Below are positions 1 to 6,971 of a stretch of DNA of 39,408 nucleotides, piece after piece. Each line of letters starts with the position of its first letter. Position 1 is the stretch's first letter. Source of the stretch: a virus (Duplodnaviria > Heunggongvirae > Uroviricota > Caudoviricetes). The stretch spans positions 1 through 39,408 of the IMG/VR virus record IMGVR_UViG_2917849834_000006, one strand, 5' to 3'. The notes beneath the pieces were generated by a model. It was given only the letters and a program-made list of their open reading frames with translations. It made no database searches and was not told the DNA's origin. The translations under genes were made by a program, and so were the position numbers.

Positions 1-90
1 TTGCCTCCCCCCCGTTGATGGGTAAAATAGCCGCAATTTTTCGTTTTCAACAAGCGCGGCGCGATGCCGCTTACTCAAGAAGAAAGAATT

Positions 91-165
91 ATGACGTTGT
101 CTCCTTATTTGCAAGAGGTGGCGAAGCGCCGCACTTTTGCCATTATTTCTCACCCCAATAATTAA
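91..165 (+). pseudogene. prfC: 5' fragment of the peptide chain release factor 3 gene (about 21 native codons) ending in a premature stop where phage DNA begins; marks the left prophage-host junction
   Basis: Translation of 91-165 is [24 protein letters not shown]; residues 1-22 match the RF3 N-terminus as I recall it (…AIISHPDAGKTT…), with divergence at about position 156 followed by AT-rich DNA. Confidence 0.5.
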
Positions 166-385: not shown

Positions 386-1609
386 ATGGCGCTGTCTGAT
401 GCGTGGTTGCGTTCAGTCGTTGGAAAGGAACGTGATAAGGTTTTGGTTAAATCCGATCGTGATGGTCTGTCTGTCAGAGTATCACCGAAAGGTCGCGTAG
501 TGTTCCAATATCGTTATCAATGGGCAGGGAAAGGTGAGCGCCTTGATATCGGAACTTACCCGGCAACTGGATTAAAAGAGGCCAGAGAAGAGGTTATCCG
601 TCTCCGTGGTGAACTCGAGTCAAACCGCAATCCACGATTAGTCAAGCAGGCTGAAAAACGAAAAGCTACTGAAGCCATGACGGTAGAGTCTGTGATCCGT
701 GCCTGGTATGAAGCATATTGTGTAAAAAATAAAAAAGGTTCTGAACAGATACTCCGCTCGTTTGAGCTGCACCTGTTCTCTAAAATCGGGAATATCCCTC
801 ACGATGCAGCTACATTGCATGATTGGTTAGAAGTCCTGGAGCCTCTTAGCACTAAGACTCCAGCAATAGCAGACCGATTGCTAATTAACGCAAAGCAGGC
901 CCATGTCTGGGCGTATAAGAGAAAGCTCATTGAAACTCGCCCGCTGTCGGATATCACGGGTAAAGATATGGATATCCGTAAAGGTCAGAAGAAACGGTTT
1001 CTGACACATGATGAAATTAAAATCCTTTATGCTGCGATCGATGGTTCTCGAATGGTTCCTAAATACCGGGCCTTCATTAAACTATTGCTGCATTTTGGCT
1101 GCCGTAGTTCAGAGCTAATTACCGCCAGGGTGGACGATTTTGATTTCATTAATAAAGTATGGACTGTACCACCAGAACGACATAAGACTGGGGAGATAAC
1201 AGGCGAACCGCTAAAGCGGCCCATTATTGAACCGGTTGAAGAGCTTATAAAGTACGCTATTTCTATGAACAATGGTTCCGATATGCTTTTTACTAAGGAA
1301 GGAAGCAGGGAACCCGTTGGTCGGACATCATTGCAGTCGCTGCCTTACAATTTAATGCAGTACGCATGGCGGCGTTTGGGGTATCAATTCCCTCATTGGT
1401 CTCTTCATGATTTGAGGCGAACAGCACGAACAAACTTTTCTGATCTTACTGCGCCTCATATTGCAGAAATAATGCTAGGTCATAAACTGCCAGGGGTATG
1501 GCAAGTTTATGACAAGAGCGATTATCTAGAAGAACAGCGTAAAGCCTACCAGGCATGGTGGGAGAGAGTTGAATCGATCGTTACTTGTACTAACTCAGAC
1601 ACCAACTGA
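386..1609 (+). CDS. int: Phage tyrosine integrase (P4-like family)
   Basis: 407-aa ORF with RBS; C-terminal catalytic region HDLRRTARTNF…LGHKLPGVWQVYDKSDY typical of tyrosine recombinases; position next to the host junction. Confidence 0.9.
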   Translation: MALSDAWLRSVVGKERDKVLVKSDRDGLSVRVSPKGRVVFQYRYQWAGKGERLDIGTYPATGLKEAREEVIRLRGELESNRNPRLVKQAEKRKATEAMTVESVIRAWYEAYCVKNKKGSEQILRSFELHLFSKIGNIPHDAATLHDWLEVLEPLSTKTPAIADRLLINAKQAHVWAYKRKLIETRPLSDITGKDMDIRKGQKKRFLTHDEIKILYAAIDGSRMVPKYRAFIKLLLHFGCRSSELITARVDDFDFINKVWTVPPERHKTGEITGEPLKRPIIEPVEELIKYAISMNNGSDMLFTKEGSREPVGRTSLQSLPYNLMQYAWRRLGYQFPHWSLHDLRRTARTNFSDLTAPHIAEIMLGHKLPGVWQVYDKSDYLEEQRKAYQAWWERVESIVTCTNSDTN

Positions 1610-3158: not shown

Positions 3159-3778
3159 TACTTCACCTCCTGCGGCGGCTCCGGTAGCGGTATCCAGTGG
3201 GTTACTTTCGATGCCGGTTCTTCCCCATCGTCAGTAACTGCCCACCATTTGTTTCTCGACCAATCGTAATACCCTTCGAAGGTATCGCACTCAGTCCAGC
3301 CGTAAGACTTACCCCAACACCAAACATACCGTTTATCGTTCGGCATTCGCTCACTACAGCTTATCCAACCATCCGGAATTACCGGAGAGTTGCCCGACAG
3401 CTCGTTCAACTTGTAAGTCTGGCTTACAGGTTCGGCACCATGAATCATGGCGGTGCGGCGGGCGTTCCAGCCTTCATCAAAACCGACTATGCCATTATTT
3501 AAAGACGGACGAGCATCTGGCACCACCGGTACTGGTTTGGCTATATATAGCGGCTGAACATACCAGCCCTTTGATAACCAACTGTCAGCAATGTTTTTAC
3601 TCCTGGTTATTGCCGGAATACCTAAGCCATTGTCTGAATGCAGCCATGCCACCGGATCCTCTTCCAGCGATGCCAGAGCAATTTCATAAGCACGGCGCTC
3701 AATATCGTCTCGAACCTCTAGGCTGCTGATTCGTTCTTTGATTTCTTTAATCAGTTCTTTATTGGTAAATGTGGTCAT
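3158..3778 (-). CDS. DUF551-like phage early protein
   Basis: 206 aa; C-terminal W/C-rich segment ending THWIPLPEPP characteristic of DUF551. Confidence 0.55.
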   Translation of the reverse strand: MTTFTNKELIKEIKERISSLEVRDDIERRAYEIALASLEEDPVAWLHSDNGLGIPAITRSKNIADSWLSKGWYVQPLYIAKPVPVVPDARPSLNNGIVGFDEGWNARRTAMIHGAEPVSQTYKLNELSGNSPVIPDGWISCSERMPNDKRYVWCWGKSYGWTECDTFEGYYDWSRNKWWAVTDDGEEPASKVTHWIPLPEPPQEVK

Positions 3779-4139
3779 TATGCTCAGCCTCCGGCGCTTT
3801 TGGCATTACTGCCCAGTGAGTGATATTGACGTTTTCAAGGTCCCCGACCTGAAATGTCCACTGCCATTCTCCGGTTTCTTTTTGCCCCCATGTGTACCAG
3901 AGAGAACGCCAGCCAATCAGCCAGCCTTCTCCGTTAGCATCAAATAACAGAACACTTTCATTTGCTGGTGGCAGTTCAGCTGACACTGGTATTATTTTGT
4001 TTTCCAGTGCCGCACATTTAGCTTCAAGCGCGTCGAATTTACGTACCAGGTACTCAGCATTTGTTTCGTTCACTTTCAGATCTCGCGGTACACATCTCCC
4101 ACGAAGAAACCCTTCCATTTCGAAAACATTCATGCGCAT
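3759..4139 (-). CDS. Hypothetical phage early protein (DUF551-like C-terminus)
   Basis: 126 aa; W-rich C-terminus …ITHWAVMPKAPE; overlapping, coupled with neighbours. Confidence 0.5.
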   Translation of the reverse strand: MRMNVFEMEGFLRGRCVPRDLKVNETNAEYLVRKFDALEAKCAALENKIIPVSAELPPANESVLLFDANGEGWLIGWRSLWYTWGQKETGEWQWTFQVGDLENVNITHWAVMPKAPEAEHNDHIYQ

Positions 4140-4666
4140 TTGCGTAACTCCGATAACTCGTTAAAACGTTCCATAAACATCCCGTAGGCATGGTCCGGTG
4201 CCAGTGGAATCACTTTGAACATATCTGTTGCCGGGATACCTTCCAGTACAGGCCAGAAAGAGCCATCATCAAGCCCGAGATCGCGGCGTTCGGTTGCCAG
4301 CATAATGAGATCGGCATATTTCACTGGCGTGCTCATAACCGGAGGTAACCCGTATTTCTCACGGATTACGGCGTCTATTTTTTCTTCCATCCGTTTATAG
4401 TCAGGAAGAAGGCGTTTCAGTGGTGCGGGGATGTCCTGGCAATACGCTTCTGTTGCATCATGCATTAACGCTTCAAAAGCAAATTCCTGATGCACCAGCT
4501 GGCTGCAAAGCACCGCATGTTGGGCGACGCTGTAGAAGTGAGAAAGATGACCGGCAAAGCGGCAGATATTTGAAAGGGAAACCGCGATATCGTTAATAAC
4601 GATGTCGTCTTTATTTATCTTGTCATAATAAAAATGCTTCCCGGAAAAAGTTTTAATAAATGACAT
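4130..4666 (-). CDS. HD-domain phosphohydrolase-like protein
   Basis: H…HD motif (AQHAVL…LMHDATEAY); likely start is the internal ATG at 4666 preceded by GGAG, rather than the track start at 4729. Confidence 0.6.
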   Translation of the reverse strand: MSFIKTFSGKHFYYDKINKDDIVINDIAVSLSNICRFAGHLSHFYSVAQHAVLCSQLVHQEFAFEALMHDATEAYCQDIPAPLKRLLPDYKRMEEKIDAVIREKYGLPPVMSTPVKYADLIMLATERRDLGLDDGSFWPVLEGIPATDMFKVIPLAPDHAYGMFMERFNELSELRKCA

Positions 4667-5337
4667 TTCGTTCTCCACTTTATATGCGCTGCACCGCGCT
4701 GAATTTTGGGAAAAGGAAGCCCTCACCATCCGGCGATTATTGAGTCAATTACGTTTCAATAGATGCCCCAGCAGGGGCGGTTAGTTTCTCCACAAAACAG
4801 AGAAGAACACCTGCGGTGACAGCCGCCCGGATGGATTGGGTTATGAGCCCGTCGTCCGGTGATGCTCTTCTCTGTTTTGTAAAAAGAGCGGTACCAGCCG
4901 GAAGCAATGGTACAAACTGATACCGCCAAGGCAGTGGCTGTTGTGGCGGGGTTGTCACTCAGGCGTATGGTCAGCCTGACAACCCGGTGTCCTCAACGGG
5001 GAAAGAGTAACCCCGCCATACTTACCGCCGCGCCATTTCGCGGATTACCACAACGCTGAGAGCACTTAGCCAGTTCGGCGCCACACTTTGTCTCGGCTCC
5101 ATAAATGCTCTTATCGTTGCACCCTGGTCTCTTCCCAGGCGTCAAACCGAATCGCCACGCTGGTTAGGCGTCTTATCAGCATCATCATTGACTTGCACAT
5201 TCCGGCTACCTGGTTTGTTTGCCCGAGCAAGGAGTGGATTGTCCCCTTTAACGTCTCCAGACCGCTAACGACGCATGTGCCATACGCCGTGTTACAACCA
5301 AACTTTGTTTGAATCTTGCCTGTTGCATGTTTCTTTT

Positions 5338-5371
5338 GGATACATTATGTATCCCAAGGGTACATTGTCAA
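5338..5371 (-). promoter_or_regulatory. Candidate leftward early promoter (PL-like) with overlapping operators
   Basis: Minus strand TTGACA (5371-5366), 16-nt spacer, CATAAT (5349-5344); 17-bp palindrome GGATACATTATGTATCC (5338-5354) and operator-like site TGTATCCCAAGGGTACA (5348-5364). Confidence 0.45.
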
Positions 5372-5398
5372 GTATAAAAAAACCTGCCGAAGCAGGTT
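5372..5398 (-). terminator. Rho-independent terminator downstream of the cI-like gene
   Basis: Minus-strand hairpin AACCTGC-ttcg-GCAGGTT followed by a T7 run, 13 nt after the cI stop. Confidence 0.6.
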
Positions 5399-5410
5399 CA
5401 TAAATATTGA

Positions 5411-6085
5411 TTAGGTCTTTATTTTGTATCTTCTTGGTTTTCCCGAGAAAATCACTGTACCAATTATAGAGCAATTACCGTTGATCTTAATGTAAGGTTC
5501 AGGCCAGTTTGGGTTTAATGCTTTGAGGTAACGCTGTGTTCCATCTTCTATCAACCGCTTGAAGGTGGTTTCGCCTGTATCGTGCATCAATGCAATAACG
5601 TCGTCACCGTGGCAGGCAGGGACTTCAGGATCAACAAAAATCATGTCTCCTGGGCGGTACTCATCAATCATTGAATCACCAATCACCCGCAAGATATAAG
5701 TCATTTCACCACAGGGTACAGGGCAGGGATAAGTTTCTGCTGTGCTCAAATCAACCTCAGAATAACCAACTTCTTTCCATGCTCCGGCCTGTACCCATGA
5801 TATGACAGGGACTAACGTTATTTGTTTGTTAGTGATTGAAACATCAGGTTTTTTTGTGATGTTCGTTGTCTGGTGTTCTTGATCAAGCCATCCGACAGGC
5901 AGGTCGAAACATTTTTCGATGTGCCGTGCCATGCTGTCACCGATATTTTTAGTTGCACCATCTCCCATAAACCTGCTGGTCTGGGTTGGCTCGCGATCAA
6001 TCATGGTGGCAAAGGAAGAATTCCCGCCAACACCATCTCTCAGTTTTCTGGCGTTAGACCGCCGGATGTCATGGACTGTTTTCAT
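5411..6085 (-). CDS. cI-like repressor with C-terminal S24 (LexA-like) autopeptidase domain
   Basis: 224 aa; N-terminal HTH region and C-terminal VIGDSMIDEYRPGDMIFVDPE S24 signature; divergent from the cro-like gene. Confidence 0.85.
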   Translation of the reverse strand: MKTVHDIRRSNARKLRDGVGGNSSFATMIDREPTQTSRFMGDGATKNIGDSMARHIEKCFDLPVGWLDQEHQTTNITKKPDVSITNKQITLVPVISWVQAGAWKEVGYSEVDLSTAETYPCPVPCGEMTYILRVIGDSMIDEYRPGDMIFVDPEVPACHGDDVIALMHDTGETTFKRLIEDGTQRYLKALNPNWPEPYIKINGNCSIIGTVIFSGKPRRYKIKT

Positions 6086-6100
6086 AATGAAATTAAAACC

Positions 6101-6169
6101 CTTGTACCGTTAAGGTACAAGTATCTTGAAGGTTCATTTTAATCATGTAATATGTACATCGGAGGTACA
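6101..6169. promoter_or_regulatory. OR-like operator/promoter region with two 17-bp operators (TGTACC-N5-GGTACA at 6103-6119; TGTACA-N5-GGTACA at 6153-6169)
   Basis: Perfect palindrome CTTGTACCGTTAAGGTACAAG at 6101-6121; second near-identical site overlapping the cro RBS; candidate rightward promoter TTGAAG (6126-6131), 16 nt, TAATAT (6148-6153). Confidence 0.6.
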
Positions 6170-6175
6170 TATTGT

Positions 6176-6376
6176 ATGAAAGCGTATTGGGACTCTTTAA
6201 CCAAAGAACAGCAGGGCGAGTTGGCCGGAAAAGTTGGCTCAACACCAGGCTACTTACGGCTGGTTTTCAATGGTTATAAAAAAGCCAGTTTTGTGCTGGC
6301 TAAAAAAATTGAGCAATGCACGTCAGGTGCAATTACGAAATCTGACTTAAGACCGGATATCTATCCGAAAGATTAA
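6176..6376 (+). CDS. Cro-like / YdaS-like HTH regulator
   Basis: Small basic protein divergent from cI; likely start is the ATG at 6176 after GGAGG, rather than the track start at 6152. Confidence 0.65.
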   Translation: MKAYWDSLTKEQQGELAGKVGSTPGYLRLVFNGYKKASFVLAKKIEQCTSGAITKSDLRPDIYPKD

Positions 6377-6407: not shown

Positions 6408-6971
6408 ATGAGGCTAACCGTGGGTAAGCATCACTGGAAAGTAGAAAAACAGCCTGAGTGGTACGTGAAAGCTGTCAGAAAAACTATCGCGGCATTGCCG
6501 GGGGGTTACGCTGAAGCTGCTGACTGGCTGGATGTAACAGAGAACGCATTATTTAACCGCCTTCGTGCCGATGGCGATCAGATTTTCCCGCTGGGATGGG
6601 CAATGATTTTACAGCGCGCGGCTGGCACTCACTACATTGCGGATGCTGTCGCACAGTCTGCTGGTGGGGTGTTTGTATCGCTTCCTGAAATTGAGGAAGT
6701 AGAGAACGCCGATATAAACCAGCGCCTGCTGGAAGTCATCGAACAGATCGGGAGTTACTCAAAGCAGATTCGTTCGGCAATCGAAGATGGGGTAGTGGAG
6801 CCACACGAGCAGACAGCAATTAATGATGAGTTGTATCTGTCAATTTCGAAGCTCCAGGAGCATGCAGCACTGGTCTACAAAATCTTTTGCGCTCCAGAAA
6901 AGAGTGACGCCCGCGAGTGTGCAGCTCCGGGCGTCGTGGCGTTTTGTGTCTGTGGAGAAACTAACGCATGA
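6408..6971 (+). CDS. CII-like regulatory protein (CP76/YdaT-like), tentative
   Basis: 187-aa ORF directly after cro; family assignment is from position and general resemblance only. Confidence 0.4.
   Translation: MRLTVGKHHWKVEKQPEWYVKAVRKTIAALPGGYAEAADWLDVTENALFNRLRADGDQIFPLGWAMILQRAAGTHYIADAVAQSAGGVFVSLPEIEEVENADINQRLLEVIEQIGSYSKQIRSAIEDGVVEPHEQTAINDELYLSISKLQEHAALVYKIFCAPEKSDARECAAPGVVAFCVCGETNA

Follow-up and report, generated by a model that had tools for sequence, protein, structure and literature searches.

What does a lambdoid prophage without an N gene carry at the head of its early-left operon? In the 39,408-nucleotide (nt) sequence IMGVR_UViG_2917849834_000006 (positions 1 to 39,408 of this IMG/VR record, the whole of which is called the window below), a lambdoid prophage of E. 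coli with immunity of the e14/cdtI type, a long interval separates the early-left promoter PL from the first leftward gene. We conclude, with a probability of roughly 0.7, that this interval is an untranslated PL leader that carries RNA genes and not protein genes, and that it corresponds by homology to the ydfC-dicF-dicB intergenic region of the Qin prophage of K-12, with a further structured RNA added on the 5' side. In other words, the interval is a dicF locus variant whose small RNA (sRNA) cassette is a different one, and an undescribed structured RNA of ~250 nt precedes it.

A mosaic of RNA modules

Read along the minus strand, PL is followed by module C, module B, a DicF-like hairpin and terminator, hairpin A and the 5' untranslated region (UTR) of a yfdR-like gene:

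5301-5337, minus strand: short A-rich 5' stretch between the presumed transcription start and module C, variable between phages
5300-5051, minus strand: module C, a multi-helix RNA of ~250 nt, delimited by covariation
5054-4940, minus strand: module B (115 nt), a four-way junction of cloverleaf topology, from fold and covariation
4939-4881, minus strand: DicF-like sRNA slot, with spacer AGCCACUGCCUU, 13-bp hairpin, 15-nt loop and CUUUUU
4880-4792, minus strand: hairpin A, with 25-nt arms (4880-4856 and 4816-4792) and a 39-nt branched loop
4667-4791, minus strand: 5' UTR that travels with the yfdR-like gene, with a small hairpin (4779-4764) and a GGAG ribosome-binding site

Each of the modules is conserved on its own in other phages, with compensatory base changes, and in BLAST searches of phage genomes the leader falls apart into segments that are found independently of one another. 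P1 has segment 5048-5302 (module C) between tRNA-Ile and ban, and the segment also occurs beside tRNA-Arg in Uetakeviruses and a Klebsiella phage, and left of the repressor gene in mEp390. Segment 4932-5054 (module B) occurs in many lambdoid phages, and segment 4767-4946 (sRNA and hairpin A) in SfII, ST64B and others. A mosaic boundary lies near 4767, where the homology to cdtI and Ayreon ends, and at the other end the alignment of module C copies reveals that the sequence upstream of TTTGGTTGTAACACGG differs by promoter type. Some part of the leader has a match in 4760 of 5426 complete E. coli genomes, and module C alone in 1377 (~25%); none of the matches listed in either genome search carries an annotated feature at the leader or at module C. 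The leader as a whole folds better than its shuffles on the minus strand (z = -4.8; plus strand, z = -2.8). The first-pass annotation had described one long, structured leader and missed this mosaic of separately conserved RNA modules; the analysis of structure conservation that it called for reveals covariation in C, in B, in the sRNA stem and in hairpin A.

The same comparisons bear on the possibility that the interval encodes one or more small proteins, or a decayed N gene. Other annotators have called short 'hypothetical protein' genes here, for example a 39-residue open reading frame (ORF) in Ayreon (5111-5230, minus strand) and orf40 of cdtI on the plus strand, and the GC-rich leader has long stop-free stretches on both strands. 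We nevertheless consider a coding function very improbable. The homologues differ by frame-shifting (non-triplet) insertions and deletions at at least five places, so that no frame is kept on either strand; a 1-nt indel is present even in a relative that is 96% identical, and variants of module B with one-base indels are visible by eye. In addition, the substitutions in the leader obey base-pairing rules and not codon rules, no Pfam family matched the four longest leader ORFs, and RefSeq annotates no feature in the interval among the matches listed. This agrees with the earlier statement that no convincing ORF and no N-like gene lie between PL and the first leftward gene, and the search for small ORFs gives no indication of a conserved small protein.

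The dicF-type part of the leader

Module B has the arrangement expected of a tRNA-like RNA, with four helices meeting at a junction, a 7-bp closing stem (GUUGUGG/CCACAAC) and linkers of 0-3 nt, in the single-sequence fold as well as in the consensus. Its arms are a hairpin CCGCG/CGCGG, an arm closed by GGU/ACC that contains GGGG/CCCC, and a long hairpin GGGUUGUCA/UGACAACCC. The fold of the single sequence alone gives the junction (z = -2.8), and in 18 diverse homologues 96% of the cells are paired (40-54% when the partners are slid), with 6 compensatory pairs (0-1 when slid). The P1 copy carries double changes in two helices, from CGGGG/CCCCG to CUGGG/CCCAG and from GUUGUCA/UGACAAC to GUUGCCA/UGGCAAC; an alternative pairing, GGCGGGGUU/AACCCCGCC, was rejected, as the P1 version is unable to form it. 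ARAGORN finds no tRNA gene in the window, and the Rfam models for tRNA, transfer-messenger RNA (tmRNA) and YrlA match neither B nor C. In Uetakeviruses a true tRNA-Arg follows module C, at the position that B holds in the window. The link to dicF is provided by the K-12 Qin prophage (sequence L128), where 111 of 123 nt (90%) are identical to B at L128:3252-3374, and dicF starts at 3383, 8 nt past the end of this element.

Like DicF, the sRNA slot belongs to the early-left operon of a lambdoid prophage and immediately follows the conserved upstream element, and it has the form of a terminator hairpin with the 5' arm GGCGGUAUCAG and an interrupted two-part stem. The core of the hairpin pairs GGCGGUAUCAG with CUGGUACCGCU, and its fold, followed by CUUUUU, resembles an intrinsic terminator. 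After B, in the same order and on the same strand, 16 nt (UUGGCGGUAUCAGUUU) are identical to nt 14-29 of DicF, and the Rfam DicF model aligns the slot over positions 13-52 with the same two-part helix. The stem undergoes compensatory changes, as in contig L059 (GGCGGUGCCAG/CUGGCACCGCC, A-U to G-C). Across many loci the slot after B is occupied by differing terminator-hairpin RNAs, which include true DicF, the type found in the window and at least three other types; different phages carry different slot loops, and hence probably different targets. The prophage sRNA that had been suggested from the sequence was therefore right in kind, as part of the leader is homologous to the dicF region of Qin.

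Directly 3' of the sRNA terminator comes hairpin A, which folds on the minus strand with -51.2 kcal/mol, compared with -25.0 ± 3.4 kcal/mol for shuffled sequences (z = -7.7, 0/200). Its arms are 84% complementary. In 42 distinct homologues they are retained; L185 (G-C to A-U) and L059 show compensatory changes, and insertions (large ones in L050 and L165) fall in the loop only. This is the structure that the first-pass annotation had recorded as long-range complementarity. The inverted repeat is real and strong, and the same z value applies to it, but its arms were misplaced by 2-7 bases, CAAAACAGAGAAG lying at 4793-4805 and not at 4795-4808, and CTTCTCTGTTTTG at 4867-4879 and not at 4872-4886; it forms a single hairpin and not a fold that spans the leader. 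The 25-bp stem is of the kind expected for RNase III, a near-perfect duplex of ~20 bp or more; P7, the last stem of module C, has 8 + 3 covariation-supported pairs, and its base is possibly extended by CAAC/GUUG. In Qin, the positional analogue of hairpin A is GUGAAUUUUGUGAUG...CAUCACAAAAUUCAU, a few nt after the dicF terminator. By analogy, we propose that hairpin A may serve as an RNase III processing stem.

The processing of the Qin transcript has been described. The 53-nt DicF of K-12 requires RNase E, and a 190-nt species has a 5' end made by RNase III (10.1101/2023.04.14.536235); both derive from the dicBp transcript (10.1101/2023.04.14.536235; PMC5069750), and a 72-nt form that depends on RNase III and ends 3' of the terminator is also reported (PMC5069750). 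Counted back from the 3' end of dicF, 190 nt lead to L128:3246, between GUGCG and CUUCC, a position in the 3' strand of the Qin stem GAAAGCGCA...UGCGCUUCC, which is the counterpart of P7. As this 5' end falls within a P7-like stem, the 190-nt RNA of Qin consists of B plus DicF. The long Qin stem after dicF, at the position of hairpin A, fits the 72-nt RNase III product. Of module C, Qin keeps only this P7-like stem upstream of B (L128 3184-3262), the rest of the ydfC-dicF spacer being without the C core.

Transferred to the window, these data suggest the following sequence of events. Inactivation of the cI-like repressor would allow PL to fire, and most of the transcripts would stop at the sRNA terminator (4881), giving an RNA of ~455 nt. 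RNase III would then cut P7, the 3'-terminal stem of C, at the site that matches the 5' end of the 190-nt K-12 species, and so free C and an RNA of ~175 nt made of B plus the hairpin; tRNA-type processing at the C/B junction is also conceivable. Transcripts that read through would form hairpin A, and its cleavage by RNase III would part the RNA genes from the downstream mRNA and set the 5' end of the latter. The RNA made of B and the hairpin would act in trans, base pairing through its 15-nt loop with a target that is not evidently ftsZ, and the sRNA terminator would also limit the expression of the leftward genes in a phage without N.

Several observations weigh against the reading as a dicF-type leader. 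The slot hairpin scores only 11.7 bits with the Rfam DicF model (RF00039; E = 2.3 in a 101-nt search), below the gathering threshold of 48 bits, and larger Rfam searches of the region gave no DicF match at all; K-12 dicF, the positive control, scores 76.7 bits. The slot has neither the 13-nt 5' seed of DicF nor its AU-rich RNase E site: the 5' single-stranded region that RNase E releases (UUUCUGGUGACGU) is absent, and only AGCCACUGCCUU stands between B and the hairpin. This distance is only ~12 nt, and a short DicF-like sRNA may therefore never be released. The slot loop does not pair significantly with the start region of ftsZ: in a crude duplex test against ftsZ (-35 to +30) and shuffles, the window loop reached ΔG -18.4 (p = 0.20) and K-12 DicF p = 0.06, the duplex energies of whole sRNAs with ftsZ being uninformative. 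GUUGUGG (5054-5048) has two mutually exclusive partners, closing either P7 (with CAAC, 5119-5116) or B (with CCACAAC, 4946-4940), an alternative by which RNase III cleavage could be linked with B folding, or which could act as a switch. Finally, the long invariant single-stranded segments of module C are not accounted for by this reading, and the processing steps proposed for this phage are all taken over from Qin.

Other sRNAs were compared with the locus. A slot variant of the L165 type (an IMG/VR contig), GUUUCUCUCCCUUAUUU, has 11 nt perfectly complementary to the ftsZ Shine-Dalgarno region GGAGAGAAACU and performs better than K-12 DicF in the duplex test (ΔG -19.5, p = 0.013). Pas sRNAs, which are located in the late region, and svsR, which lies inside the 3' end of cI, were rejected as identities for this locus, and the matches to microRNA, small nucleolar RNA and hairpin-ribozyme models that Rfam gives at permissive thresholds are at chance level. 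In the ban operon of P1 (L005), just upstream of tciA, positions 3496-3615 (minus strand) give a sub-threshold match (33.4 bits, E = 1.3e-4) to STnc100, a prophage sRNA family.

Module C and its possible roles

The 5' part of the leader resolves into a series of helices and invariant segments:

5289-5269, minus strand: P1, with a GCA triloop (CGGCRUAUG-GCA-CAUGYGYCG)
5264-5257 with 5213-5203, minus strand: P2 (CGGU-CYGG / CCRG-GUA-GCCG)
~5249-5229, minus strand: P3
5210-5192, minus strand: invariant GGUAGCCGGAAUGUGCAAG
5171-5157, minus strand: P5, with the loop CUAACCA (consensus of 4 bp and a loop YUMACCA)
5165-5162 (AACC) with 5148-5145 (GGUU), minus strand: candidate pseudoknot
5139-5123, minus strand: P6, with the loop GAAGAGA (consensus of 5 bp and a loop GAAGAGW)
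~5119-5051, minus strand: P7, a long stem with a variable loop

This structure was derived from 97 distinct copies from IMG/VR, to which 4 more distant phage copies and 18 copies from species-representative genomes (Kosakonia, Phytobacter, Citrobacter, Kluyvera, Klebsiella, Superficieibacter, Erwinia and Escherichia) were added. The 16-mer scan of the genomes gave mostly chance matches outside Enterobacterales, which were removed by requiring flanking motifs. The first consensus had compensatory changes in 16 pairs; shuffles gave 8.3 ± 1.5 such pairs, and slid controls 3-7. P7 has at least 5 compensatory pairs. For the hand-built core, in the more diverged set, 97% of the cells are paired; of the 30 pairs, 12 show compensatory changes, against 1-3 when slid, and the compensatory cells number 60 against 17.3 ± 4.0 in shuffles. 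The candidate pseudoknot joins the P5 loop, (A/C)ACC, to GGU(U/G) within the otherwise invariant GGCGAUUCGGUKUGAC, and its pairing is kept in 23 of 23 sequences, as AACC/GGUU in 4 (including L249, which has a different background) and as CACC/GGUG in 19. A closing helix CACGGCG/CGUUGUG proposed by RNAalifold was rejected, since it breaks wherever P1 turns G-C into A-U and its other columns are all invariant. Rfam scans of module C gave no family match.

The surroundings of module C vary between phage types. In lambdoid prophages it follows promoter-like sequences of several types by ~35-45 nt. In P1-like phages it comes directly after tRNA-Ile2; the copy of P1 itself has no P7, and ban follows it immediately. 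Uetakeviruses have it as the first element of a small divergent unit that is flanked by the terminase and portal genes; there, as in a Klebsiella phage, it directly abuts tRNA-Arg(UCU), and the last four bases of GUUGUGG (GUGG) begin the acceptor stem of the Uetakevirus tRNA-Arg. Our best guess for module C is either a processed RNA that is stable or a leader element that acts in cis.

Two further features of its hairpins were recorded. The P7 loops of L237 (SPN1S), L101 and L239 (BUCT554) contain hairpins that resemble tRNA T-arms, for example AGGGUUCGAAUCCCU and GCUGGUUCAAUUCCAGAC, which may be tRNA remnants or functional tRNA-like parts. In the otherwise variable P3 hairpin, YCCUUG, which resembles an anti-Shine-Dalgarno sequence, recurs across genera and is paired with AAAGGGG in the window (5229-5249).

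An antitermination role of the put type was the other proposal of the first-pass annotation, and the properties of module C allow it to be stated more precisely: C, made just after PL, would bind the transcribing RNA polymerase and cause read-through of the sRNA terminator and of later terminators, replacing N. The leader has a strong hairpin with a U run upstream of all the leftward genes, and no N-like gene was found between PL and the first of them, nor any N/nut arrangement, nor a boxA with up to 2 mismatches in the leader. The position of C ~35-45 nt past promoter-like sequences of several types, just left of the repressor gene in mEp390 as in the window, would suit such a function, as would its long invariant unpaired segments, which are expected of a surface that binds a conserved host machine. 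However, the published put element of HK022 is an RNA of ~70 nt with two stems that begins at +1, with one copy at PL and another at PR (PMC9378689), whereas C measures ~250 nt and has at least 6 helices. We located HK022 putL by the primers of PMC9378689, and putR by similarity; the best local alignments of the two with the leader score 20 and 19 (p = 0.12 and 0.17 against shuffles), and no structural similarity was detected either. No two-stem element of ~70 nt starts at +1 of the PL transcript, and no second copy of any leader module was found in the window, the PR side included. The put reading as first worded thus fails on sequence, structure and copy number. The distribution of C also speaks against the wider form of this explanation, since the operon of P1 does not begin with C (the dicF-like region, three tRNAs and the tci genes all precede its truncated copy, and ban comes right after it), and the Uetakevirus unit that begins with C is tiny, comprising a tRNA and one or two small ORFs. 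Taken together, we judge antitermination by C to be quite unlikely. Two short motifs were also dismissed: a boxA-like CGCUCUUUUUACAA at the terminator, which is not conserved (homologues have GUCCUU, GCCCUU or GACCUU), and a string shared by put and the leader, CAUGCGUCG..AGCG, which is not above chance.

A related and broader proposal, to which we give similarly little credence, is that module C defines an RNA family of temperate enterobacterial phages, with a pseudoknotted core of ~190 nt and a processing stem, that acts as an RNA-only regulator of elongation at the heads of early operons and fills the role of N or put in many lambdoid phages without N.

The company of tRNAs points in another direction. 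Module C, by itself or combined with the next element (a tRNA or something tRNA-like), might be a stable RNA that acts in trans, with processing of the tRNA type and a host-directed or anti-defence role unrelated to PL, the leader being merely a convenient site of expression. C abuts genuine tRNAs on either side in two phage lineages, the tRNA-Arg of Uetakeviruses takes the place of the cloverleaf B, hairpins such as GGGUUCGAAUCCC in the P7 loop of some homologues are T-arm-like, the core is pseudoknotted and highly conserved, and lambdoid, P1-like and Uetakevirus phages, three unrelated types, all have C. Against this stand the failure of ARAGORN and of the Rfam tRNA, tmRNA and YrlA models to recognise either C or B, and the lack of a partner protein gene consistently near C. 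We regard this explanation as unlikely, and retain the leader with its dicF-type RNA genes as the preferred description of the interval.

DicF is among the oldest known bacterial sRNAs, and drawings of its locus usually show a gene of 53 nt. In the dicF-type reading, dicF is an interchangeable cassette in a conserved scaffold, composed of a stem, a cloverleaf, a variable terminator hairpin and a second stem, which is common to many prophages. Module C combines the covariation, pseudoknot and invariant loops that are typical of riboswitches, ribozymes or ribonucleoprotein scaffolds, yet it is unannotated and absent from Rfam. Its role could explain how early-left genes are expressed past a terminator in lambdoid phages without N, or provide a new phage RNA that acts on the host.

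Prophage setting and known systems

The limits of the leader follow from its neighbours:

5371 to 5344, minus strand: PL promoter, with -35 TTGACA (5371-5366) and -10 CATAAT (5349-5344)
5380-5399, minus strand: intrinsic terminator of the cI-like gene, an 8-bp stem with a T run, directly abutting PL
5411-6085, minus strand: cI-like repressor gene of the LexA family (Pfam match, Peptidase_S24)
6176-6376: cro-like helix-turn-helix gene (Pfam search of the window proteins)
6408-6971: CII-like gene (Pfam search of the window proteins)
4130-4666, minus strand: first leftward gene, a YfbR/YfdR-like HD-domain 5'-deoxynucleotidase (PF12917 and RefSeq annotation)

PL is of the sigma-70 type, with 16-nt spacing and 11 of 12 consensus matches, and the Ayreon annotation has a promoter at the equivalent place and a terminator at the place of that of the cI-like gene. 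Operators of the form TGTAC-N7-RTACA occur only three times in the 39-kb window: TGTACCCTTGGGATACA (5348-5364) lies between the PL hexamers, and the other two (6103-6119 and 6153-6169) between the cI and cro genes. From the position of PL, its operator and the abutting cI terminator, we infer that transcription starts near 5337 and runs for ~670 nt to the ATG at 4666. The leader was correctly described as long, structured and untranslated, but it most likely ends at 4667 and not at 4730, because the near-identical yfdR homologue begins, in the RefSeq annotation, with the ATG that corresponds to 4666, and because this ATG has GGAG upstream and the ATG at 4729 has none. The PF12917 match of the first leftward gene (E = 6.8e-5, 23.1 bits) is under the Pfam cut-off of 25.9 bits. 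At the 96%-identical locus, RefSeq names the cI-like gene ymfK, the cro-like gene ymfT, the CII-like gene ymfL and the first leftward gene yfdR.

At the left end, positions 64-165 (plus strand) encode what we take to be the N-terminus of release factor PrfC, cut short, which is followed by a tyrosine integrase gene (386-1609, plus strand); the prophage appears to be inserted in prfC. On the plus strand, a weak Rfam match to STnc370 (26.9 bits, E = 0.98, below threshold) spans PL and the cI terminator (5340-5408), and is probably just the terminator hairpin.

Of the known systems, the N leader of lambda has the same map position as the leader of the window. It holds a large hairpin cleaved by RNase III. 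The window leader differs from it in having neither an N ORF nor a boxA, and the two have no sequence similarity. HK022 put is likewise an RNA element near PL in a lambdoid phage without N, and a cis role of module C would meet the same need; however, put and module C have no detectable similarity, and C starts near +37 and is present in a single copy.

In the ban operon of P1, B (75% identical; annotated as a 'dicF-like region', which is homologous to B) and the P1-P6 core of C (79% identical) are both present, on the same strand. The order is reversed and interrupted (B, tRNAs and tciABC, tRNA-Ile, C, ban), C is without P7, and the hairpin after B has diverged.

There remains the dicF locus of Qin. 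The window differs from it in having the full module C and no ydf genes, in an sRNA without the 13-nt 5' seed and RNase E site of DicF and with a different loop and 3' arm (11.7 against 76.7 bits with the Rfam model), and in the stem after the terminator, which is unrelated in sequence. The two loci share an early-left-type operon under a cI-like repressor, a P7-homologous stem before B, the 123-nt structured element (B) immediately 5' of the sRNA, an sRNA that is a terminator hairpin with the 5' arm UUGGCGGUAUCAG, and a long stem after the terminator.

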